DNA from: a virus
Taxonomy: Duplodnaviria; Heunggongvirae; Uroviricota; Caudoviricetes
Reading direction: 5' to 3' (one strand)
DNA length: 44,897 nt
Virus record (IMG/VR): IMGVR_UViG_2872688378_000003
Below, in pieces: positions 1 through 39,679 of the stretch (the first letter of the stretch is position 1; each line of letters begins with the position of its first letter). The translations under genes were made by a program, and so were the position numbers. The notes beneath the pieces are model-generated. The model saw only the letters and a list, made by a program, of their open reading frames with translations. It searched no databases and was not told the origin of the DNA.

Positions 1-378
1 ATGGACGAACAGTGGGGCTATGTCGGTGCTAAATCGCGCCAGCGCTGGCTGTTTTACGCGTATGACAGGCTCCGGAAGACGGTTGTTGCGCACGTATTCG
101 GTGAACGCACTATGGCGACGCTGGGGCGTCTTATGAGCCTGCTGTCACCCTTTGACGTGGTGATATGGATGACGGATGGCTGGCCGCTGTATGAATCCCG
201 CCTGAAGGGAAAGCTGCACGTAATCAGCAAGCGATATACGCAGCGAATTGAGCGGCATAACCTGAATCTGAGGCAGCACCTGGCACGGCTGGGACGGAAG
301 TCGCTGTCGTTCTCAAAATCGGTGGAGCTGCATGACAAAGTCATCGGGCATTATCTGAACATAAAACACTATCAATAA
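1..378 (+). CDS. insB: IS1 transposase InsB, C-terminal part (5' end outside window)
   Basis: ORF translation ...[31 protein letters not shown] matches the IS1 InsB C-terminus as I recall it. Confidence 0.85.
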
Positions 379-393
379 GTTGGAGTCATTACC
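1..393 (+). mobile_element. IS1 insertion sequence, right-hand portion (window begins inside the element)
   Basis: insB frame runs to stop at 376-378 and is followed by the IS1 terminal inverted repeat ...GTTGGAGTCATTACC ending at 393; recognised from memory of IS1. Confidence 0.85.
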
Positions 394-686
394 ACGAGCT
401 CAACGGGGAAAGACTGAGAGAACCTAACGAAGTTTTTAAACGTTTAGGTCGAGCAATAAGATATAATTTTCAAGTGGACGATGCAAAATTTAGACGCGAT
501 AATGTAAAAGAAATAATTTCTAATTTATTCGCTAACAAAGTTGACGTTGACCATCCTGAAAATAAATACAAAGACTTTAAGGATCTCGAAGATAACGTTG
601 AAAAAAGACTTCAAAATCGCCAGGCGAAATATCAAAATGAAATTAATCAACTATCTGCGCCAGGTGTTAATTTTGATGATATTTAA
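394..686 (+). pseudogene. 3' fragment of a host ORF interrupted by IS1 (possibly yfdF)
   Basis: Frame is open from the IS1 boundary (no stop between 394 and 686), protein-like translation ...ELNGERLREPNEVFKRLGRAIRYNFQVDDAKF...; ORF track start at 474 is a GTG; gene identity inferred only from K-12 gene order (yfdF precedes mlaA). Confidence 0.4.
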
Positions 687-825
687 AATTATTTTTCCAG
701 TTTTTTGATTTTTCAACGCCTGAATATCGGAAATAGTCAGTGACGAACATCAGTATTTTTACATCATTACGTCCGGGTCATTGTCGGTTTATCTCCTTTT
801 ACTTGTGGTAATTGAGGGATAACAA

Positions 826-858
826 CAAAAAAGGTGAGTTTTGCGACTCACCTTTTTT
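826..858. terminator. Bidirectional rho-independent terminator between the truncated ORF and mlaA
   Basis: A-run, stem GGTGAGT / ACTCACC with 6-nt loop, then T-run (aaaaaaaGGTGAGTtttgcgACTCACCtttttt). Confidence 0.7.
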
Positions 859-867
859 ATTTGTTTC

Positions 868-1623
868 TTATTCAGAATCAATATCTTTTAAATCATCCTG
901 AATCGCTTGTGCGTTCGGATTTTCCTGCGGTTTGAGTTCGCCGCCATTAGCGATGAAATCATGACGCTGGAAGTACGCTTCGCGCACCATAATATAAGGA
1001 TCGGACGACTGACGCAGCAGACCATCGGAATCCAACAACTGCGCACGAGTTTCTATCCCTTCAAGCGTCCATTTACCCACAGACATCGGCCAGGTCAGCC
1101 AGGAAAGAACCGGGTAAAGACCATCCGCCATATCACCACCGTCATCACGCAGCGTGAAGCTACCGTAGAACGGTAACTGAACGTAAGGCCCATAACCCAC
1201 GCCATAATGACCAAGCGTACTACCGAAGCGGTGAGGTTCAGTCCGTTGCAGTTTCGGGTTCGCCATCCCTGCAACATCAATAAAACCGCCCATCCCCAAA
1301 ATGGTGTTCAGGAAAAAGCGGGTAAAGTGGACCATCCCCTGATAAGGGTCGCCCTGCAAGAAGTAGTTAACCATCACCGCAGGTTCTTCAAGGTTGCCAG
1401 TAAAGTTGCTCAAACCGTTACGCGCCGGTTGCGGAACATAATCACGCCAGGCGACAGCGACCGGTCGAACAATATACGGGTCTAATACATTGAAGTTGAA
1501 GTTGTACATGGTGCGGTTGAACCCTTCTAACGGGTCAGAACGCCCTTGCTGATCTGTACCGGAACTCGCACACCCCACCAGAAGCGTAGTTCCCAGAGCA
1601 AGCGCCGACAGGCGAAGCTTCAT
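868..1623 (-). CDS. mlaA: Phospholipid-binding outer-membrane lipoprotein MlaA (VacJ)
   Basis: 251-aa ORF with lipoprotein signal (LLVGCAS) and sequence matching MlaA/VacJ from memory; expected neighbour of yfdC-argW. Confidence 0.85.
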   Translation of the reverse strand: MKLRLSALALGTTLLVGCASSGTDQQGRSDPLEGFNRTMYNFNFNVLDPYIVRPVAVAWRDYVPQPARNGLSNFTGNLEEPAVMVNYFLQGDPYQGMVHFTRFFLNTILGMGGFIDVAGMANPKLQRTEPHRFGSTLGHYGVGYGPYVQLPFYGSFTLRDDGGDMADGLYPVLSWLTWPMSVGKWTLEGIETRAQLLDSDGLLRQSSDPYIMVREAYFQRHDFIANGGELKPQENPNAQAIQDDLKDIDSE

Positions 1624-1916
1624 AAATGTCTCCCTGTTTTTTTATGGCTTATGCAGTTTGCCATCCATGACGGAACGATACCGTATCCGCCTGTTTAGGT
1701 GTGGGCGATTGTAACAGCACGTCAACTGATGTCCAGACGCCCTGATTTGCTGATTTGATCATAGCCTGGTAATCGCCGCCCTGTAGGCTACTTGATTCTA
1801 TAGAAACAGAAAAAGGCAAACGCAGCCTTTTCTACATTTTCAGAGTAACTCCCGTCAGTTGCGAGCAAAAAAGCCGCTACGCTTTAGCTATACGTGCTAA
1901 TTCAAGAGAAGAGACC

Positions 1917-2849
1917 ATGGACAACGACAAAATTGATCAACACAGCGACGAAATTGAAGTTGAGAGCGAAGAAAAAGAGCGCGGCAAAAAAATAGAAATA
2001 GATGAAGACCGACTCCCCTCCCGGGCGATGGCAATTCATGAGCATATCCGCCAGGATGGTGAAAAAGAGCTGGAACGCGACGCAGTGGCGCTACTGTGGT
2101 CAGCCATTGCGGCGGGTCTGTCGATGGGCGCTTCGTTACTGGCAAAAGGGATATTTCAAGTCGAACTGGAAGGTGTGCCGGGCAGCTTCTTGCTGGAGAA
2201 TCTCGGTTATACCTTTGGTTTTATTATCGTCATTATGGCCCGCCAGCAATTATTTACCGAAAATACCGTGACTGCGGTACTACCCGTCATGCAAAAACCG
2301 ACAATGAGCAACGTCGGCTTACTTATACGGTTATGGGGCGTCGTGCTGCTGGGTAATATTCTCGGGACAGGTATTGCGGCGTGGGCATTTGAATATATGC
2401 CTATCTTCAATGAAGAAACTCGCGATGCATTTGTCAAAATCGGCATGGATGTGATGAAGAACACCCCCAGCGAGATGTTTGCCAACGCGATCATTTCCGG
2501 CTGGCTGATCGCCACTATGGTTTGGATGTTTCCTGCAGCGGGTGCGGCAAAGATTGTGGTGATTATATTGATGACCTGGCTTATTGCCCTGGGTGACACC
2601 ACCCATATCGTGGTCGGTTCTGTTGAAATCCTCTATCTGGTGTTTAACGGTACGCTGCACTGGAGCGATTTCATCTGGCCCTTCGCACTACCTACTTTAG
2701 CGGGGAACATCTGCGGCGGCACCTTTATCTTCGCGTTAATGAGTCATGCACAGATTCGTAACGACATGAGCAATAAGCGTAAAGCAGAAGCACGCCAAAA
2801 AGCAGAACGTGCGGAAAACATTAAGAAAAATTATAAAAACCCGGCATAA
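1917..2849 (+). CDS. yfdC: Formate/nitrite transporter family inner-membrane protein YfdC
   Basis: 310-aa ORF, hydrophobic multi-pass membrane protein; position immediately upstream of argW as in K-12. Confidence 0.8.
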   Translation: MDNDKIDQHSDEIEVESEEKERGKKIEIDEDRLPSRAMAIHEHIRQDGEKELERDAVALLWSAIAAGLSMGASLLAKGIFQVELEGVPGSFLLENLGYTFGFIIVIMARQQLFTENTVTAVLPVMQKPTMSNVGLLIRLWGVVLLGNILGTGIAAWAFEYMPIFNEETRDAFVKIGMDVMKNTPSEMFANAIISGWLIATMVWMFPAAGAAKIVVIILMTWLIALGDTTHIVVGSVEILYLVFNGTLHWSDFIWPFALPTLAGNICGGTFIFALMSHAQIRNDMSNKRKAEARQKAERAENIKKNYKNPA

Positions 2850-2924
2850 ATGGCGAGGGTTTAAGCAATCGAGCGGCAGCGTACTTACCCCGCACTCCAT
2901 TAGCGGGTATACTCATGCCGCATT

Positions 2925-2999
2925 GTCCTCTTAGTTAAATGGATATAACGAGCCCCTCCTAAGGGCTAATTGCAGGTTCGATTCCTGCAGGGGACACCA
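2925..2999 (+). tRNA. argW: tRNA-Arg (anticodon CCU), argW; prophage integration site (attL side)
   Basis: 75-nt sequence GTCCTCTTAGTTAAATGG...GGTTCGATTCCTGCAGGGGACACCA with T-loop GGTTCGATTCC, CCA end and anticodon loop CTCCTAA. Confidence 0.95.
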
Positions 3000-3124
3000 T
3001 TTATCAGTTCGCTCCCATCCGTACCAGTCCGCAAAATCCCCTGAATATCAAGCCTTCCGTAGATTCACAGTTCGTCATGGTTCGCGTCAGATCGTTGACA
3101 GCCGCACTCCATGACGGGTAAAAA

Positions 3125-4318
3125 GTGGATAAAATAATTTTACCCACCGGATTTTTACCCATGCTCACCGTTAAGCAGATTGAAGCAGCAAAGCCGAAAG
3201 AAAAACCATACCGCCTACTCGATGGTAATGGCCTGTACCTTTATGTCCCTGTGTCAGGGAAAAAGGTATGGCAGCTTCGCTACAAGATTGACGGTAAGGA
3301 GAAAATCCTGACCGTCGGAAAATATCCGCTAATGACTTTGCAGGAGGCAAGAGATAAAGCATGGACCGCGAGGAAAGACATCTCGGTTGGCATCGATCCG
3401 GTAAAAGCGAAAAAGGCTTCGTCTAACAACAATTCCTTTAGTGCCATTTACAAGGAATGGTACGAGCACAAGAAGCAAGTCTGGTCAGTAGGCTATGCAA
3501 CTGAACTTGCCAAAATGTTTGATGACGACATTTTACCCATCATCGGCGGTCTTGAGATTCAGGATATTGAGCCGATGCAACTGCTGGAAGTAATCCGCAG
3601 ATTTGAAGATCGCGGTGCAATGGAGCGAGCCAACAAAGCCCGCAGAAGATGCGGCGAGGTTTTCCGTTACGCTATTGTCACCGGCAGGGCTAAATATAAC
3701 CCGGCACCTGACCTTGCTGACGCCATGAAGGGGTACCGCAAGAAGAACTTCCCGTTTCTTCCTGCAGACCAGATCCCGGCATTCAATAAAGCACTGGCAA
3801 CATTTTCAGGAAGTATCGTATCGCTCATTGCCACCAAGGTTTTACGCTACACTGCCCTAAGAACGAAAGAGCTTCGTTCCATGCTATGGAAGAACGTCGA
3901 TTTTGAAAACAGGATTATCACCATCGACGCCAGTGTGATGAAAGGACGCAAAATTCATGTGGTCCCGATGTCAGACCAGGTGGTTGAACTTCTCACTACG
4001 TTAAGCTCCATCACCAAACCAGTATCAGAGTTTGTTTTTGCCGGGCGCAACGATAAGAAGAAGCCAATCTGCGAGAATGCGGTACTGCTTGTGATCAAAC
4101 AAATCGGCTATGAAGGTCTGGAAAGCGGTCACGGATTCAGGCATGAATTCAGCACGATTATGAACGAGCACGAATGGCCTGCTGACGCTATTGAAGTGCA
4201 ACTGGCACATGCCAACGGCGGATCTGTGCGCGGGATTTACAACCATGCTCAGTATCTCGATAAGCGCAGAGAAATGATGCAATGGTGGGCGGACTGGCTT
4301 GATGAAAAGGTGGAGTGA
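3125..4318 (+). CDS. intS: Tyrosine integrase, P4/IntS family (prophage integrase)
   Basis: Translation contains the characteristic N-terminal MLTVKQIEAAKPKEKPYRLLDGNGLYLYV motif and C-terminal catalytic region (...HGFRHEF...YNHAQYL); likely true start is the ATG at 3161; lies directly after argW. Confidence 0.9.
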   Translation: MDKIILPTGFLPMLTVKQIEAAKPKEKPYRLLDGNGLYLYVPVSGKKVWQLRYKIDGKEKILTVGKYPLMTLQEARDKAWTARKDISVGIDPVKAKKASSNNNSFSAIYKEWYEHKKQVWSVGYATELAKMFDDDILPIIGGLEIQDIEPMQLLEVIRRFEDRGAMERANKARRRCGEVFRYAIVTGRAKYNPAPDLADAMKGYRKKNFPFLPADQIPAFNKALATFSGSIVSLIATKVLRYTALRTKELRSMLWKNVDFENRIITIDASVMKGRKIHVVPMSDQVVELLTTLSSITKPVSEFVFAGRNDKKKPICENAVLLVIKQIGYEGLESGHGFRHEFSTIMNEHEWPADAIEVQLAHANGGSVRGIYNHAQYLDKRREMMQWWADWLDEKVE

Positions 4319-12208: not shown

Positions 12209-14217
12209 TAACCCACCCTCACCTGATTACTTCGCATGACCTGAGCATTTGCAGACTGTTGCCGACGTGCAACCTCATTACCGACAGCGTGCGGATCTCC
12301 GCCACCGTAAATGTGGTAAGTATTTTGCTGGTTAACCTCTGTCATTTTGCCACTAATTCCCGCCACGGCAGCCTTATTAATCAGCTCTCGAGAATAGATA
12401 TTTCTTCCATTCTCATGCTGGATAATGCTGCTCATCAATGCTGACATGGTTTGCGGATCGCTCATATTCAGGGCAGCCCGGGGATCCACTCCCAGTCGTT
12501 GCGATACAGCCCTGATATACGCAGTTGTGTTGTTATTATCAGACGCAGGTGCCCAGGTAGAGATAATTTTCTCCACACTGTTTATTCCCCGTCCTGCGTA
12601 CAGCATTAACTGACGAGCAAGAGCCCGTAATCCATCAAAAGCAGTTTCAAATCTGGCAAATCGCCCGCCCGGGCGTTCAAGAGAAGCCCCTGCCTGACCA
12701 GCAAAATTAAGGTTTCCCGGATTGTTATTCCGTTCTCCTCGTTTCGTAGCCTGTGCATATTGTTCCGGCTCATCATCACCAAACCAGCCGCGTACCGTCC
12801 GGCCCACACTGCGGGGATCGAATCCCCAGTGCTCTTTAATCCAGTCGGCAGTACTGTTAGCGCTGTCTGTAACCATCGGCATCGCTGACGGATTTTCGCT
12901 GCCCTGATTAAGTATCTGTTTGCCGATGATGACGGCATCAGCCCAGCGGCCATCTTTGATAGCGTTGAGCAGGTCGGCGATCATGTTCAGCATTTTGCTG
13001 AATTCGCCCATCTGGTCGATGAAGTTGCTGAAATCCCACTTCAGGGACCATGATTTGGGGTCAATATTGAGCAGTTTCGCCAGCGCTTTCGCCAGTTCAT
13101 TAACAGACCCTTTCAGGTCACGAACCATCTTCAGCGCGGCATCGACCTCCGGCTTCCACTTGCCCCAGTCAATCAGGCTGTCGCCGCCTTCCTTCCAGGT
13201 CTGATAGTCCTCCCACAGAAGGGCAATCCCCGCCGCCAGCGCGGTAATGAGGCCAATCGGCGACATCCAGAACGTACTGTTCAGAATGCGCAGCGCAATC
13301 GTCAGCGCGCCAAACAGCGAGATGAGCTCCCGCGTTTGCTTATCCAGCGATTGCCACCAGGTGATAAGGCTGGATGTTCCCTCAATTAGCCTGAAGAACA
13401 GCCGCCCGATGATGTCTCCGATCGCCAGAATGCCTTTTATGGCTTTCGTCAGGGTCTGCTCGATGCGCGGGAAGTTATCGAGGATGTGGCGGCGCAGTGT
13501 GTCCAGCGAACCCGCCAGACCACCAGCAAGATTAGAGCCGATTTTGTCACGGGCCATGCCTGCCATCGCGCCGAACTCGCGCAGGGAGGTCATGAATTTG
13601 TTGGAGCTTCTGGCCGCCTCGTCAGCATTGAAGCCGATAGCTTTCGCCATTGCGCTGTACTGCCCGGAGAAATCACCCACACCCCGGCGCATCGCCATAA
13701 GGGTATTTTCGTCAATGCCTAGCATCTGCGCATACTGGTTAGCCCGGTAATACGGCATGCCGCTGAGCTTCTGGCCTACACCTGTAAAAATAGCGGCCAT
13801 GTCACGCATGTTACCGCTGGCATCCCGTGTCTGTACCCCCAGGCGATTCAGGAATCCTTCCGCGCCGGGATTGTTACGAACAAACCGGGAGAGGCTTTCC
13901 AGAGAGGTTCGCGCCGCGTCCACGCTGCCGCCAACCTGCGAAACCGCATAGCCAATAGACTGAATTCCCTGGACTGTCGCGCCGGTGCGCTGTGACGCCC
14001 GGTAAAGATTATCCAGGCCGGAGGCGATCTTAGCCGTGAAGGCCACCACGGACAGCGCAGCTCCTTCAACGGCCAGTCCCATTTTGATGGCATTTGCAGT
14101 TGTACCGGCGAGGACAGAACCGAACTTTTTCGCTCCTGCATCATCCACACTGAAGCCAAGCGAGACGAGGAAATCTTTAATAGTTTCAGCGTTCATTATC
14201 CTCTCTCCATTTCTCAA
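12208..14217 (-). CDS. Tail tape measure protein
   Basis: Long ORF after tail chaperone; likely true start ATG at 14196 (MNAETIKDFL...) with SD GGAGAGAGG; ORF track start at 14217 is TTG. Confidence 0.8.
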   Translation of the reverse strand: MRNGERIMNAETIKDFLVSLGFSVDDAGAKKFGSVLAGTTANAIKMGLAVEGAALSVVAFTAKIASGLDNLYRASQRTGATVQGIQSIGYAVSQVGGSVDAARTSLESLSRFVRNNPGAEGFLNRLGVQTRDASGNMRDMAAIFTGVGQKLSGMPYYRANQYAQMLGIDENTLMAMRRGVGDFSGQYSAMAKAIGFNADEAARSSNKFMTSLREFGAMAGMARDKIGSNLAGGLAGSLDTLRRHILDNFPRIEQTLTKAIKGILAIGDIIGRLFFRLIEGTSSLITWWQSLDKQTRELISLFGALTIALRILNSTFWMSPIGLITALAAGIALLWEDYQTWKEGGDSLIDWGKWKPEVDAALKMVRDLKGSVNELAKALAKLLNIDPKSWSLKWDFSNFIDQMGEFSKMLNMIADLLNAIKDGRWADAVIIGKQILNQGSENPSAMPMVTDSANSTADWIKEHWGFDPRSVGRTVRGWFGDDEPEQYAQATKRGERNNNPGNLNFAGQAGASLERPGGRFARFETAFDGLRALARQLMLYAGRGINSVEKIISTWAPASDNNNTTAYIRAVSQRLGVDPRAALNMSDPQTMSALMSSIIQHENGRNIYSRELINKAAVAGISGKMTEVNQQNTYHIYGGGDPHAVGNEVARRQQSANAQVMRSNQVRVG

Positions 14218-32050: not shown

Positions 32051-32505
32051 TTAACGCCACGCTCTGTACCGAATGCCTGTATAAGCTCTAATAACTCCGC
32101 AAATTCGCTTACACGCATCCTGCTGGTTGACTGGCCTATTACCACAAAGCCATTCCCGGCAAGGTTAGGAACAACGTCCTGCTGCTTTAATGCTGCGGTA
32201 AACACACACTTCCAGCTTTCTGCATCCAGCCAGCGACCATGCCATTCAACCTGACGAGAGACGTCACCAAGGCAAGCCCAAAGCTTTCGATTCTGGTCTA
32301 AGCTGCGGTTGCGTTCCTGAATGGTTACTACGATTGGTTTGGTTGGGTCTGGAAGAATTTGCTGTACTGCGTGAATAGCGTTTTGCTGATGTGCTGGAGA
32401 TCGAATTTCAAAGGTTAGTTTTTTCATGACTTCCCTCTCCCCCCAAATAAAAAGGCCTGCGATTATCAGCAGGCCTGTTATTAACTCAGTGATGTAGATG
32501 GTCAT
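31987..32505 (-). CDS. ninB: NinB (recombination mediator, lambda ORF146)
   Basis: Translation from [31 protein letters not shown]... matches lambda NinB; real start about 32427, the upstream in-frame stretch spans a terminator hairpin. Confidence 0.85.
32441..32479 (-). terminator. tR2-like rho-independent terminator between replication and nin genes
   Basis: Perfect 8-bp stem AGGCCTGC / GCAGGCCT with 8-nt loop; on minus strand followed by TTTTTATTTGGGG. Confidence 0.7.
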
Positions 32506-33878
32506 ACGTCAGCCCCTTGTGCATATCGTCTGCCACGCGCAGCAGGTGCATTTGATGCTGTGCAAATCTGTCTGGCTTCATCCTGGTCACATGCAACAAA
32601 GTGTCCGTTGCAGAACCGCTGGTAAACCGTACCAAGTGAGCCAAAACGGTTTTTCGTCACGATGATTTCAGCAAATGGCGCGGCGCTACTGTTCTCGTCA
32701 TATACCGCTTCCCGATAGAGCATGATGATTGAGTCTGCGTCCTGCTCAATGCTTCCTGAATCACGCAAATCTGCGTTTGTCGGGCGTTTGTTTGGTCGCT
32801 TCTCAACATCGCGCGAAAGCTGACTCAGGGAGATAACCGGTGTTTTCAGGTCTTTCGCCATCGCCTTCAGGCTTCCGGAGATGTGAGCAATTGCGAGGTC
32901 GTTGCGGTCTGCTTTCGGCTTCTCAATCAGGCCAAGATAATCCGCCATGATGAGTGAGAGGTTTGGATTTTCCTGTTTGTGCCGTTCTGCGATTGAGCGT
33001 ATTTCTTCGACCGATAACCGCGAGGCATCGACTACCCATACATCCAAATCTGCAAGCTGACTCATGCCGTTAGCAACACGCGCCCAGCCTTCGTCATCCA
33101 TCGATGCAGGATTTCGCAGTACGCTAACCGACATCCTCCCGGCGTTGGCAATGCTTCGCTCTGCAATCTGCAATGCGCTCATTTCCATTGAGAAAATCAA
33201 TACTCCGCGCCGAACGTCAGAACCAGGAATAACGCGGCTTGCAACGCCTTCGGCAATCTTCAGCGCCAGCTCGGTTTTACCCATACCAGGACGAGCGGCG
33301 ATTATCACCAGGTCTTCCGCGTTCATCCCTCCGGTGATGGCATCAAGTTCTTCGATTCCGGTCTTCAGGGTATCGGACTCTTCTCCGTTCCTCAGACGCC
33401 TGTCAAGCGTGTCAGTGTAGTCGGTGATGATTTCCCCTAACCGTACAGGTTTAACCTCGTCACGGGGCTTTCTGATGGATGAAAGACGCTTTACAAGTTC
33501 ATCCATCGCCTGACTCGATGCGTCGATGGTTCCGCTCTGAATTGGTTCACGCATTTCATCCATGATTTCCAGCACCAGACGGCGGTGATAGTTATCCGCG
33601 ACCATTCCGGCATATCCCTTCAGGTTTGCGGCACTCGGGCAGTTTTTGCTGGTCATCAGGATTGACGTGAAATGCTCCTCTCCGCACGCCTCGGCAACCA
33701 TCAGCGCGTCGATTAGGTTTCTGTTTCTCGCCTGCTTCCTGATAACCTCGAAGGCTTTCCGGTAGAGCGGAATTGAAAACGCTTCCGGCTCAAGCGTTGC
33801 CAGAACGTCGCTGGCGGTTGGCGTTAATCCACCAATCAGCAGACCGCCGATAACGCTCGCTTCGATATCCTGTCTCAT
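32502..33878 (-). CDS. Replicative DNA helicase (DnaB family)
   Basis: 458 aa with Walker A GMGKT (…[12 protein letters not shown]…) and DnaB-like C-terminal motifs; downstream of O-like gene in place of lambda P. Confidence 0.8.
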
Positions 33879-34696
33879 GCAATCCCCCTGTCTGCAAACT
33901 TCCCTTCACGAACTCCCGTTAACGAATCTTCTCTCAGCAGGTAATCAAAATCGGCCGTCCAGCCCGTGTCGTTGTCTCCGAAGTAAAACGGCTTGGCCTG
34001 ATGCACAAACGCCCTGACATACGCCCTGAAACCGTCCACGTTTGGCGTTTTCAGTTGCGGGATGATTTTCTTCAGGCGGCGTTTGCGTTTCTCGTTGACC
34101 GCAACAGCGTGTGGAAGTCTGTCACCGACTTCGGTGTTGTAGGCGTTCAGGAAGGATTCGTAGTCGATTCGTTCTGCCTTGCGACGTTCAGGTTTAACCT
34201 GCCCATCGCCGCCCCCGTTAGGGGGTAAGGGGGTATTTGTATTTATTGTCTTTTGTATATTGTCTTTTGTGTTTAGCTGACTTGGCTTATACCCATTAGC
34301 CGACTTGGCTAATGTTTTATTAGCTGTTTTGGCTAATGTTAAGCTGTCCTGGCTAATCCACTGCGAAACCACCTTGTTCACTCCGATTTTCACGCCATCA
34401 GCAATGAGGAATTTACGCTCAATAAGCTGGCGCTTGGCAGCGCAAACATGAGTGTGATGAATACCTGTCATGGCTGCTATCTGCGTGTTTGTGAGTCGAT
34501 CCATCGGCTTATTGAATCCATATGTCTTGCGCATGATAGCGAGCATCACCTTCAACTGCCGGACGGTTAAATCAGCCATCAGCAGACTGTCGGTAATCTC
34601 GTTAGCAACGCGCATGAAACCATCTTCGGTGTCTGCCACGCGATGCTCCACGACCTCCAGTTGAGGCCTGTAATCAGCTAACTTAACGACGCCCAT
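33875..34696 (-). CDS. Replication initiator, lambda O-like
   Basis: N-terminal region ...[37 protein letters not shown]... resembles lambda O N-domain; internal iterons encode repeated [15 protein letters not shown] linker. Confidence 0.75.
34230..34358. repeat. Replication origin: four about 19-bp iterons plus adjacent AT-rich region inside the O-like gene
   Basis: Direct repeats TTAGCTGACTTGGCTTATACC / TTAGCCGACTTGGCTAATG / TTAGCTGTTTTGGCTAATG / AAGCTGTCCTGGCTAATCC at 34272-34358, next to AT-rich GTATTTGTATTTATTGTCTTTTGTATATTGTCTTTTGTG. Confidence 0.75.
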
Positions 34697-34920: not shown

Positions 34921-35217
34921 TGTCAGCACCATGGCTACTTTCTTTGCCAGCTCTGCTAATTCCTCGTCTTCAACACCCCACTCCAGCACAGCCAGAAGCA
35001 TGGCCATCTTTGGGATAAAGCTGTCTTTCCATCGCGAAATTTGCGATTCATTAATCCCTAATGCATCAGCAACCTTTCGCTGACCACGTACAGCAATTCG
35101 ATTCAGGATGTTGCTTGTAATTGCATTCGCTTTCTTGCGAGTACTTGTAAGTTGCATATGTAAGTATTTCCTTAGATAACAATTGATTGAATGTATGCAA
35201 ATAAATGCATACACCAT
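34879..35217 (-). CDS. cII: CII transcriptional activator (variant allele)
   Basis: Conserved core ...SQISRWK...IPK...MLLAVLEWGV...; likely true start at 35157, where the upstream SD region is lambda-identical (TAAGGAAATACTTACAT ATG). Confidence 0.8.
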   Translation of the reverse strand: MVYAFICIHSINCYLRKYLHMQLTSTRKKANAITSNILNRIAVRGQRKVADALGINESQISRWKDSFIPKMAMLLAVLEWGVEDEELAELAKKVAMVLTKEKPQDCCNSFEA

Positions 35218-35236
35218 AGGTGTGGTTTAATTTGAT

Positions 35237-35268
35237 GCCCTTTTTCAGGGCTGGGATGTGTAAGAGCG
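35237..35268 (-). promoter_or_regulatory. nutR (boxA CGCTCTTA, boxB GCCCTGAAAAAGGGC) with adjacent tR1
   Basis: Reverse complement of 35237-35268 gives boxA and boxB in lambda arrangement between cro and cII. Confidence 0.8.
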
Positions 35269-35275
35269 GGGTTAT

Positions 35276-35485
<210 letters not shown>

Positions 35486-35502
35486 TTAGTACATGCAACC
35501 AT

Positions 35503-35565
35503 TATCACCGCCAGAGGTAAAATAGTCAACACGCACGGTGTTAGATATTTATCCCTTGCGGTGAT
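35503..35565. promoter_or_regulatory. Right operator OR1-OR2-OR3 with divergent promoters pR and pRM
   Basis: 17-bp operators TATCACCGCCAGAGGTA (35503-35519), CAACACGCACGGTGTTA (35527-35543), TATCCCTTGCGGTGATA (35549-35565). Confidence 0.9.
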
Positions 35566-35573
35566 AGATTTAA

Positions 35574-36290
<717 letters not shown>

Positions 36291-36402
36291 TCGGCAAGGT
36301 GTTCTGGTCGGCGCATAGCTGATAACAATTGAGCAAGAATCTTCATCGAATTAGGGGAATTTTCACTCCCCTCAGAACATAACATAGTAAATGGATTGAA
36401 TT

Positions 36403-37242
36403 ATGAAGAATGGTTTTTATGCGACTTACCGCAGCAAAAATAAAGGGAAAGATAAGCGCTCAATAAACCTGTCTGTTTTCCTTAATTCTCTGCTGGCTGA
36501 TAATCATCACCTGCAGGTTGGCTCCAATTATTTGTATATTCATAAAATCGATGGAAAAACTTTTCTCTTTACCAAAACAAATGACAAGAGTCTGGTTCAG
36601 AAGATAAATCGCTCTAAAGCTTCAGTTGAAGATATTAAGAACAGCCTCGCAGATGACGAATCATTGGGATTCCCATCTTTTTTGTTTGTTGAAGGCGACA
36701 CCATTGGTTTTGCCAGAACTGTTTTCGGGCCGACCACATCCGATCTGACAGATTTTTTAATCGGGAAAGGAATGTCATTAAGCAGTGGAGAGCGCGTTCA
36801 GATAGAGCCACTGATGAGGGGAACCACCAAAGACGATGTTATGCATATGCATTTCATCGGCCGAACAACGGTGAAGGTAGAAGCCAAGCTACCTGTATTT
36901 GGCGATATATTAAAGGTCTTAGGGGCAACAGATATTGAAGGGGAGCTTTTTGACTCATTGGATATAGTCATTAAGCCAAAATTTAAAAGGGATATAAAAA
37001 AGGTTGCCAAGGATATTATTTTTAACCCGTCACCTCAATTTTCAGACATTAGCCTGCGGGCAAAAGATGAGGCCGGAGATATTTTAACAGAACATTATCT
37101 ATCAGAAAAAGGCCATCTCTCAGCGCCTCTGAACAAGGTCACCAATGCTGAGATAGCTGAAGAGATGGCATATTGCTACGCAAGAATGAAAAGTGATATA
37201 CTGGAATGTTTTAAAAGGCAGGTGGGCAAAGTTAAGGATTAA
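36403..37242 (+). CDS. rexA: RexA, abortive-infection/exclusion system component
   Basis: 279-aa translation MKNGFYATYRSKNKGKDKRSINLSVFLNSLLADNHHLQ... matches lambda RexA. Confidence 0.9.
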   Translation: MKNGFYATYRSKNKGKDKRSINLSVFLNSLLADNHHLQVGSNYLYIHKIDGKTFLFTKTNDKSLVQKINRSKASVEDIKNSLADDESLGFPSFLFVEGDTIGFARTVFGPTTSDLTDFLIGKGMSLSSGERVQIEPLMRGTTKDDVMHMHFIGRTTVKVEAKLPVFGDILKVLGATDIEGELFDSLDIVIKPKFKRDIKKVAKDIIFNPSPQFSDISLRAKDEAGDILTEHYLSEKGHLSAPLNKVTNAEIAEEMAYCYARMKSDILECFKRQVGKVKD

Positions 37243-37257
37243 TTATCAGGAGTAATT

Positions 37258-37692
37258 ATGCGGAACAGAATCATGCCTGGTGTTTACATAGTAATAATTC
37301 CTTACGTTATCGTAAGCATTTGCTATCTCCTTTTCCGCCACTACATTCCTGGTGTTTCTTTTTCAGCTCATAGAGATGGTCTTGGGGCGACATTGTCATC
37401 ATATGCAGGAACCATGATTGCAATCCTGATTGCTGCCTTGACGTTTCTAATCGGAAGCAGAACGCGCCGACTGGCCAAGATTAGAGAGTATGGGTATATG
37501 ACATCGGTAGTTATTGTCTATGCCCTTAGTTTTGTTGAGCTTGGAGCTTTGTTTTTCTGCGGGTTATTGCTTCTTTCCAGCATAAGCGGCTACATGATAC
37601 CCACTATCGCCATCGGCATTGCCTCTGCATCGTTCATTCATATATGCATCCTTGTTTTCCAACTATATAATTTGACCAGAGAACAAGAATAA
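37258..37692 (+). CDS. rexB: RexB, membrane component of Rex exclusion system
   Basis: 144-aa hydrophobic multi-TM protein matching lambda RexB. Confidence 0.9.
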   Translation: MRNRIMPGVYIVIIPYVIVSICYLLFRHYIPGVSFSAHRDGLGATLSSYAGTMIAILIAALTFLIGSRTRRLAKIREYGYMTSVVIVYALSFVELGALFFCGLLLLSSISGYMIPTIAIGIASASFIHICILVFQLYNLTREQE

Positions 37693-37696
37693 CCCG

Positions 37697-37722
37697 GCCT
37701 CAGCGCCGGGTTTTCTTTGCCT
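37697..37722 (+). terminator. timm-like terminator after the cI-rexA-rexB operon
   Basis: Hairpin CCCGGC-ctcagc-GCCGGG followed by TTTTCTTTG directly after the rexB stop. Confidence 0.7.
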
Positions 37723-37865
37723 CACGATCGCCCCCAAAACACATAACCAATTGTATTTATTGAAAAATAAATAGATACAACTCACTAAACATAGCAATTC
37801 AGATCTCTCACCTACCAAACAATGCCCCCCTGCAAAAAATAAATTCATATAAAAAACATACAGAT

Positions 37866-37928
37866 AACCATCTGCGGTGATAAATTATCTCTGGCGGTGT
37901 TGACATAAATACCACTGGCGGTGATACT
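37866..37928 (+). promoter_or_regulatory. Left operator OL3-OL2-OL1 and promoter pL
   Basis: Operators AACCATCTGCGGTGATA, TATCTCTGGCGGTGTTG, TACCACTGGCGGTGATA; -35 TTGACA 37900-37905, -10 GATACT 37923-37928. Confidence 0.9.
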
Positions 37929-37967
37929 GAGCGCATCAGCAGGACGCACTGACCACCATGAAGGTGA

Positions 37968-37998
37968 CGCTCTTAAAAATTAAGCCCTGAAGAAGGGC
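37968..37998 (+). promoter_or_regulatory. nutL (boxA CGCTCTTA, boxB GCCCTGAAGAAGGGC)
   Basis: Exact boxA at 37968-37975 and boxB hairpin at 37984-37998 in the pL leader. Confidence 0.85.
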
Positions 37999-38078
37999 AG
38001 CATTCAAAGCAGAAGGCTTTGGGGTGTGTGATACGAAACGAAGCATTGGCCGGAAGTGCGATTCCGGATTAGCTGCCA

Positions 38079-38489
38079 ATGTGCCAATCGCGGGGGGTTT
38101 TCGTTCAGGACTACAACTGCCACACACCACCAAAGCTAACTGACAGGAGAATCCAGATGGATGCACAAACACGCCGCCGCGAACGTCGCGCAGAGAAACA
38201 GGCTCAATGGAAAGCAGCAAATCCCCTGTTGGTTGGGGTAAGCGCAAAACCAGTTAACCGCCCTATTCTCTCGCTGAATCGCAAACCGAAATCACGAGTA
38301 GAAAGCGCACTGAATCCGATAGACCTTACGGTGCTGGCTGAATACCACGAACAGATTGAAAGCAACCTGCAACGTATTGAGCGCAAGAATCAGCGCACAT
38401 GGTACAGCAAGCCACGCAGTGAAATGGGTGTGACATGCTCAGGCCGCCAGAAGCAACGCGGAAAATCAATTCCAGCTTATTACGATTGA
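38079..38489 (+). CDS. N: Antiterminator N
   Basis: Translation from ATG at 38157: MDAQTRRRERRAEKQAQWKAANPLLVGVSAKPVNRPILSLNRKPKSRVESALNPIDLTVLAEYH... matches lambda N (C-terminus slightly divergent); ORF-track start 38079 is upstream of the true start. Confidence 0.9.
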   Translation: MCQSRGVFVQDYNCHTPPKLTDRRIQMDAQTRRRERRAEKQAQWKAANPLLVGVSAKPVNRPILSLNRKPKSRVESALNPIDLTVLAEYHEQIESNLQRIERKNQRTWYSKPRSEMGVTCSGRQKQRGKSIPAYYD

Positions 38490-38689: not shown

Positions 38690-39160
38690 ATGACAAAATC
38701 ATGGAGCGTACCTTTTCCTGAATCAGAAACTGAACATGATGGAATGCCTGTTTTCTGGAGATTCCAGTCGACAGTTGAAGAAGATGGGATAAAAATATTC
38801 GCACTTCAATATATAGCTTTTCATCAGACAGAGCATTATGCATGGTTGGTTCCTGCGCATTGGGTTGTTGATTTTAAACCAGCACCAAATCAGTGGTTAC
38901 AGGAATGGAAACAAAGGAGAAATAGATATGCAATTAAGAAAGTAGCAAAAAATGCAGAAAGATCTTTTGCATTCCCAACGAAGAAACTTGCTATTGAAAG
39001 TTTATTGCGCCGGAAGAAATACCATTTAATGAGAATCAAACAAGATTTGGCTGTTGTATCAACTCTTGTTGATGGGATGAAGAATATTGATACATCAACA
39101 CCAGATATTGAATATAACTTTGGGCACAACCAAGAAACAGAAAATTGGGTATTTTATTAG
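38690..39160 (+). CDS. Hypothetical protein in N-proximal accessory position (156 aa)
   Basis: AT-rich (about 35-38 percent GC) ORF directly downstream of N, hydrophilic, no family recognised. Confidence 0.55.
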   Translation: MTKSWSVPFPESETEHDGMPVFWRFQSTVEEDGIKIFALQYIAFHQTEHYAWLVPAHWVVDFKPAPNQWLQEWKQRRNRYAIKKVAKNAERSFAFPTKKLAIESLLRRKKYHLMRIKQDLAVVSTLVDGMKNIDTSTPDIEYNFGHNQETENWVFY

Positions 39161-39310: not shown

Positions 39311-39679
39311 ATGTCAAACATCAAAAAATACATCATTGATTACGACTGGAAAGCGTCAATAGAAATTGAAATCGACCATGACGTAATGACAGAGGAAAAA
39401 CTTCACCAGATTAATAATTTCTGGTCAGACTCTGAATACCGACTCAATAAACACGGCGCTGTATTAAATGCTGTATTAATCATGCTGGCGCAACATGCTC
39501 TGCTTATAGCAATTTCGAAAGACTTAAATGCATATGGTGTTGTTTGTGAGTTCGACTGGGATGATGGAAATGGTCAGGAAGGATGGCCTCCAATGGATGG
39601 TAGTGAAGGAATAAGAATTACCGATATCGATACATCAGGAATATTTGATTCAGATGATATGACTATCAAAGCCGCCTGA
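39311..39679 (+). CDS. Hypothetical acidic protein (122 aa)
   Basis: ORF with SD upstream (GAGGATATGAATAGATG); acidic C-terminus; no family confidently recognised. Confidence 0.5.
   Translation: MSNIKKYIIDYDWKASIEIEIDHDVMTEEKLHQINNFWSDSEYRLNKHGAVLNAVLIMLAQHALLIAISKDLNAYGVVCEFDWDDGNGQEGWPPMDGSEGIRITDIDTSGIFDSDDMTIKAA

Follow-up and report, generated by a model that had tools for sequence, protein, structure and literature searches.

The rexA and rexB genes in the window (the whole stretch of 44,897 nucleotides analysed here) are, with a probability that we put at roughly 0.93, the rexA and rexB of bacteriophage lambda themselves, on a lambda immunity cassette that passed unaltered, by recombination, into a different temperate phage. 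The prophage is not lambda; only its immunity cassette is. The genes are textbook lambda rexAB and hold nothing new in themselves, and as far as sequence can tell, every testable feature of lambda RexAB is found in the pair and none is missing. Relative to lambda (J02459/NC_001416, positions 37114–35825), the operon has the same sequence, gene order, spacing, promoters and terminator, and the difference lies only in the genome that hosts it.

Identity of the rexA–rexB pair

Both genes lie on the plus strand, as does cI, with 112 nt separating cI from rexA and 15 nt separating rexA from rexB in the ORF list. RexA (36403–37242, 279 aa) and RexB (37258–37692, 144 aa) are each identified by the ORF list, Pfam, PADLOC, PHROG and the alignment to J02459. 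RexA matches PF15969 with E=1e-97 (326.8 bits, cut-off 25) and RexB matches PF15968 with E=8.5e-92 (305.4 bits, cut-off 27); the corresponding PADLOC matches are 9e-110 and 8.6e-61, and the PHROG matches are 6.4e-163 (RexA-like) and 3.6e-78 (RexB-like), whereas NCBIfam contains no model matching either protein. All 279 residues of RexA are the same as those of the crystallised lambda protein (PDB 8TWQ). The preliminary description had placed rexA and rexB at 36403–37692, and open reading frames with exactly these ends, belonging to the expected families, bear it out; at the sequence level, neither gene contains a frameshift or a truncation.

Kyte–Doolittle hydropathy of the pair matches the published four-helix inner-membrane topology of lambda RexB and the soluble character of RexA (PMC11077077): RexA has no hydrophobic segment (maximum KD19 of 0.95), and RexB has four, with peaks near residues 12–21, 51–60, 89–113 and 121–130. 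A GGAG Shine–Dalgarno sequence stands 7 nt upstream of rexB. No solved RexB structure exists, and a PDB sequence search with RexB returns chance-level matches only (E=0.86), which lends no structural support to the putative ‘ion channel’ model of RexB. We also followed, and rejected, a lead to a MotA/ExbB-type channel that came from the RefSeq name ‘biopolymer transporter ExbB’ on some RexB variants (H66 and H68; positions 2356–2790 of locus L005). The name appears to be a quirk, because the proteins that bear it are RexB at 99.8–99.9% identity and no family model backs it.

The lambda immunity cassette and its junctions

Base-by-base alignment to J02459, in which the lambda coordinate equals 73517 minus the window coordinate, delimits a shared cassette of 3.26 kb at 35155–38413 (lambda 38362–35104), outside which mismatches are dense. 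Over the 2.68 kb from 35256 to 37932, which comprise cro, OR/pR/pRM, cI, rexA, rexB, timm, OL and the pL hexamers, there is not a single mismatch. The whole block contains six: one at 35255 in the nutR spacer, one at 37933, one at 38053 in the N leader, and three in N, at 38312, 38330 and 38349. The change at 37933 (A to G, two bases ahead of the pL start) is the sole difference from lambda close to OL and pL. When the region is compared with phage records by megablast, lambda ranks first, with 99.8% identity over 3214 bases (query 1–3214). The lambda immunity context proposed in the preliminary description is thus confirmed, as is the order cI–rexA–rexB–timm.

The elements that define lambda immunity (cI, cro, OR1–3, OL1–3, pR, pRM and pL) are all present within the mismatch-free stretch. 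cI (35577–36290, plus strand) encodes a 237-aa protein with HTH_3 and Peptidase_S24 domains that is identical to that of J02459, and cro (35276–35476, minus strand) encodes 66 aa identical to lambda Cro. Operator coordinates, transferred from the J02459 annotation via the exact alignment, are 35503–35519, 35527–35543 and 35550–35566 for OR1, OR2 and OR3, and 37866–37882, 37886–37902 and 37910–37926 (plus strand) for OL3, OL2 and OL1. A promoter scan recovers pR on the minus strand (TTGACT at 35529–35524, GATAAT at 35506–35501) and pL on the plus strand (TTGACA at 37900–37905, GATACT at 37923–37928). The same consensus scan missed pRM, a weak, activator-dependent promoter. From established lambda knowledge, we take pRM to be the plus-strand segment 35542–35577, with a −35 element TAGATA (35542–35547), a −10 element TAGATT (35565–35570) and a leaderless start at the cI ATG (35577); its sequence is identical to that of lambda.

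Two further elements of the operon lie close to rexB. Within the last 70 nt of rexA, the promoter scan finds a sigma-70-like site (37173–37202, plus strand; TTGCTA, an 18-nt spacer and a TG-extended TATACT) that is a candidate for pLIT, a promoter for rexB only that has been described at the rexA 3′ end (bioRxiv 10.1101/2021.04.19.439022). The intrinsic terminator of the pRM, pRE and pLIT transcripts, timm, described in lambda by the same study, occupies 37691–37720 on the plus strand and overlaps the rexB stop codon (37690–37692). Its GC-rich hairpin, AACCCGGC-CTCAGC-GCCGGGTT (37691–37712), begins at that stop codon and is followed by the U-run TTTCTTTG; the RNA folds at −21.2 kcal/mol, with a z of −3.7 against shuffled sequences, all 200 of which fold less well. 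A search of the whole window against Rfam at gathering thresholds finds the argW tRNA alone, with no match in the rex region.

The cassette ends at 35154/35155, at the cII start codon, and at 38413/38414, towards the 3′ end of N. The reading frame is kept across each junction, leaving an intact 92-aa CII of another allele and an intact 111-aa N, which keeps the boxB-binding N terminus of lambda and has an SfI/Sf6-type sequence in its last ~25 residues. The position of the left junction makes pRE (35135–35167, plus strand) a hybrid, with the −10 element of lambda (AAGTAT, 35162–35167) and with CII tetrads, TTGC-N6-TTGT (35135–35148), that lie in the non-lambda cII; lambda has TTGC-N6-TTGC in the same register. 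A second, perfect TTGC-N6-TTGC occurs 24 nt further upstream, at 35111–35124. The hybrid promoter would presumably function with the resident CII allele.

Could the stretch identical to lambda be an artefact of laboratory DNA contamination or chimeric assembly? A 2.68-kb segment that is 100% identical to a laboratory reference sequence invites the question, and lambda DNA often turns up as a contaminant. A probable case is the record of ‘Campylobacter phage CJLB-4’ (MW057783.1), which equals lambda in length and matches its immunity region at 99.8% identity. In the window, by contrast, the junctions are in frame at classical module boundaries and the flanks of the block hold the six differences from lambda. 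Moreover, positions 13000–44897 are identical to the genome of E. coli CUVET20-1667, in which the RefSeq annotation already names the genes ‘protein rexA’ and ‘protein rexB’, and the same 9-kb region is 100% identical in five independent complete E. coli genomes (CUVET20-1667 and four more) that differ in host and country, with dog, pig, human patient and slaughterhouse as sources; two carry an extra IS100. This recurrence of the same 9 kb in further independent genomes rules out contamination or misassembly for practical purposes, and we give an artefact only a vanishingly small chance. In ETEC4089 and ETEC1702, the IS100 insertion lies elsewhere in the 9-kb early region and rexAB is intact.

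The prophage that carries the cassette

Outside the cassette the prophage is not lambda, a restriction of the lambda origin on which the preliminary description was silent. Judged by O, P, ren and siphovirus structural genes, the phage as a whole is not lambda. In tblastn searches, lambda P and Ren have no homologue anywhere in the window (E of 0.7 or higher), and lambda O finds only 42% identity over 134 aa. In place of O and P, the replication module (32502–34696, minus strand) encodes a 273-aa O-like initiator (PF04492) together with a DnaB-like helicase of 458 aa; the CII of the phage is also a different one. Where lambda has ren and Red, the window phage has no ren and carries a Rad52-family recombinase with a P22-like Abc2, as well as an SSB. 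The structural, lysis and terminase genes at 3000–27900 are those of a SEN34-like temperate myovirus, the virion genes being 95.7% identical to those of the E. coli myophages vB_EcoM-611R5/606R2/683R1 and 82.5% identical to those of Salmonella phage SEN34. The lambda immunity cassette is thus housed in a contractile-tailed phage.

Integration also follows a non-lambda route, using an IntS/TorI module at argW. The site is the tRNA-Arg(CCT) gene argW (2925–3000 region), with intS at 3125–4318 and torI at the window end. A 16-bp core, CTGCAGGGGACACCAT, lies at 2985–3000, and the identical RefSeq genome has its second copy ~74 bp after the point where the window stops, which places attR just outside the window. 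This position explains why a repeat search on the two window ends yielded no att repeat.

Several accessory genes accompany these modules. Among the baseplate and tail-fibre genes, the minus-strand segment 8751–9747 contains a gene for a 138-aa toxin of the YafO family (PF13957, E=3.5e-17) adjoined upstream by a 192-aa ORF (phrog_35514); the two could form a toxin–antitoxin moron, and the pair has no PADLOC match. Downstream of N, where lambda has sieB/ral, a 156-aa ORF (38690–39160, plus strand; phrog_1636) lies in a patch of low GC content (0.36–0.38) and matches no Pfam, PADLOC or NCBIfam model; an Ea10-like DUF2528 gene (39311–39679) follows it. PADLOC recognised no further defence genes among ten other accessory ORFs of the prophage.

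Among the closest parallels to the arrangement is Shigella flexneri phage SfI (JX509734), which carries the same lambda cI–rexA–rexB cassette at 99.6% identity, in a match that reaches the query end, and has the same non-lambda C terminus of N. SfI, however, retains lambda-type cII, O, P and ren beside the cassette, whereas the window prophage does not.

The cassette might instead be silent cargo in a defective prophage, with genes that are intact only through recent acquisition and that are not expressed or not useful. Near-zero variation would also be expected from a recent transfer that left selection no time to act, one genome has an IS1 inside rexA, and the identical RefSeq prophage contains pseudogenes elsewhere (ead/Ea22-like, a theta-subunit homologue and a tail-fibre fragment). 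Against this, cI, pRM, pL and each of the six operators are intact and match functional lambda exactly. An intact repressor is also needed to silence what is otherwise a complete lytic gene set, with integrase, TorI, terminase, portal, head, tail, lysis, Q and replication genes, and any transcription of cI from pRM must run on into rexA and rexB as far as timm. We therefore consider silent cargo very improbable. The IS1 in question is an IS1A that interrupts rexA in E. coli strain E06 (NZ_CM143910.1).

Distribution of rexAB and the functions of Rex

Among 5426 complete E. coli genomes, 98 contain rexAB, always at 99% identity or more. A contiguous lambda ren–P–O–cII–cro–cI–rexAB block is present in 70 of the 98, most of them K-12 laboratory lineages, and coverage counts indicate that in the other ~28 the cassette lies outside a contiguous lambda O–P–ren block, as it does here. 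A full-length lambda-type cI is far more widespread, occurring in 617 E. coli genomes, 123 of which have it at 99% identity or more. In wild phages with a lambda-type cI (HK544, HK244, HK542, CL707, mEp332 and ev099), the cI, cro, N and operators are 95.6–98.4% identical to those of the query, but only 51–55% of it is covered, and the rexAB segment between cI and OL is replaced by unrelated hypothetical genes or, in ev099, by a gene for an NYN-domain protein. The presence of other genes behind cI identifies this site as a variable cargo slot, of which the window has the rexAB version. rexAB is thus a minority occupant of the slot and is linked to the lambda-proper cI allele.

This linkage bears on what rexAB is selected for. 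The preliminary description called the pair an established phage-exclusion system. That lambda RexAB excludes rII-deficient T4 stands (PMC11077077; PMC11879866), but the literature is less settled than the phrase implies, as RexA also has a role in the CI/Cro switch and the primary function is debated. One alternative, which we hold to be possible though well short of likely, is that lambda rexAB is selected for phage-internal regulation, with exclusion as a side effect; it is compatible with a defence role, and the two readings part only over the primary activity. After induction, RexA would stabilise the CI/Cro switch in its lytic state; RexB, for its part, would temper RexA and act as an inhibitor of proteolysis by Clp. 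RexA does bind CI as well as DNA, and it biases the CI/Cro switch even without RexB (bioRxiv 10.1101/2021.04.19.439022). In addition, rexAB moves together with cI, cro and the operators as a single unvarying block, which fits a function tied to that particular CI/Cro pair. The same tie is suggested by the uniformity of rexAB across its 98 genomes, set against a cI that reaches 99% identity in only the 123 of 617, although this linkage may instead reflect the recent spread of one haplotype. Other observations speak against this alternative. The wild phages with a lambda-type cI and other genes in the rex slot indicate that the switch works without Rex. Knocking down the divergent rII genes of five diverse phages, T4, MM02, EdH4, SUSP1 and N4, sensitises each of them to lambda RexAB (PMC11879866). 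Mycobacterium, Gordonia and Pseudomonas hosts, moreover, are protected by distant RexAB-like pairs (PMC12894663). These relatives, Sbash gp30/31, CarolAnn gp44/43 and RexABpp of Pseudomonas putida prophage P1, likewise pair a sensor with a membrane effector beside a CI-like repressor, are expressed from the prophage and exclude heterotypic phages (PMC12894663; PMC11077077). They are distant relatives recognised by structure or HHpred, whereas the pair in the window is lambda's own sequence.

We infer expression in the lysogen, exclusion of T4 rII mutants and the underlying mechanism from sequence identity with lambda: rexA and rexB equal the genes tested there, and pRM, OR1–3, OL1–3, the pLIT-like site, timm and a wild-type cI carry no change. 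CI bound at OR1 and OR2 would activate pRM in the lysogen, giving a leaderless transcript that covers cI, rexA and rexB and ends at timm; pLIT inside rexA would add a rexB transcript, and CII-activated pRE would read through cI–rexA–rexB during establishment. In the classical model, RexA, a cytoplasmic dimer that would bind DNA non-specifically, senses a signal from an infecting phage (T4 or others without rII function, or some lambdoid phages), proposed to be a phage protein–DNA complex or a replication intermediate. RexA would then activate RexB, the predicted four-helix inner-membrane protein, whereupon the membrane would depolarise, ATP would fall and the infection would abort, with RIIA and RIIB allowing wild-type T4 to escape. 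In parallel, RexA could bind CI and, after induction, help to keep the switch locked in the lytic state; RexB could inhibit proteolysis of some substrates by ClpXP and ClpAP.

Published work supports several of these steps and qualifies others. RexAB excludes T4 that lacks rII function, as well as other phages in which rII is knocked down, but does not exclude wild-type T4 (PMC11077077; PMC11879866), and the RexA:RexB ratio affects exclusion (PMC12894663); this ratio depends on the arrangement of pLIT and pRM, which is preserved here. DNA binding by RexA does not correlate with exclusion (PMC11077077). RexB protects lambda O, Phd and MazE from Clp-dependent degradation (PMC11077077), and Ren and O are reported interaction partners of Rex, the Rex–Ren contact having been detected by two-hybrid analysis (bioRxiv 10.1101/2021.04.19.439022). 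As lambda O is missing from the window, the O-stabilising role of RexB cannot apply to the resident initiator without new evidence; more generally, any Rex activity that depends on lambda O, P or ren cannot operate here in the lambda manner.

What would an unchanged cI–rexAB block mean for a phage that lacks ren and lambda O/P and replicates with a DnaB-helicase module? Toothman and Herskowitz (1980) reportedly found lambda ren mutants and some replication-region hybrids to be Rex-sensitive. Either Rex activity may do without any of the lambda partners, or the phage may, once induced, be sensitive to its own Rex system and have some other means of coping; we regard this dichotomy as speculative and unlikely to hold.

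There are several implications. First, the classical Rex system of lambda is present, without change, in a wild E. coli prophage, and the value of this observation lies mainly in correct annotation; its mosaic context is mildly instructive, yet it is already present and annotated in public genomes. Second, the ~28 of 98 rexAB genomes without a contiguous O–P–ren block form a ready natural series for the question of which partners Rex needs, and mosaics without ren, O and P offer backgrounds in which exclusion could be separated from the roles of Rex in the CI/Cro switch and in stabilising O. Finally, and more broadly, the lambda immunity cassette emerges as a discrete, invariant 3.3-kb module that moves between unrelated temperate phages.
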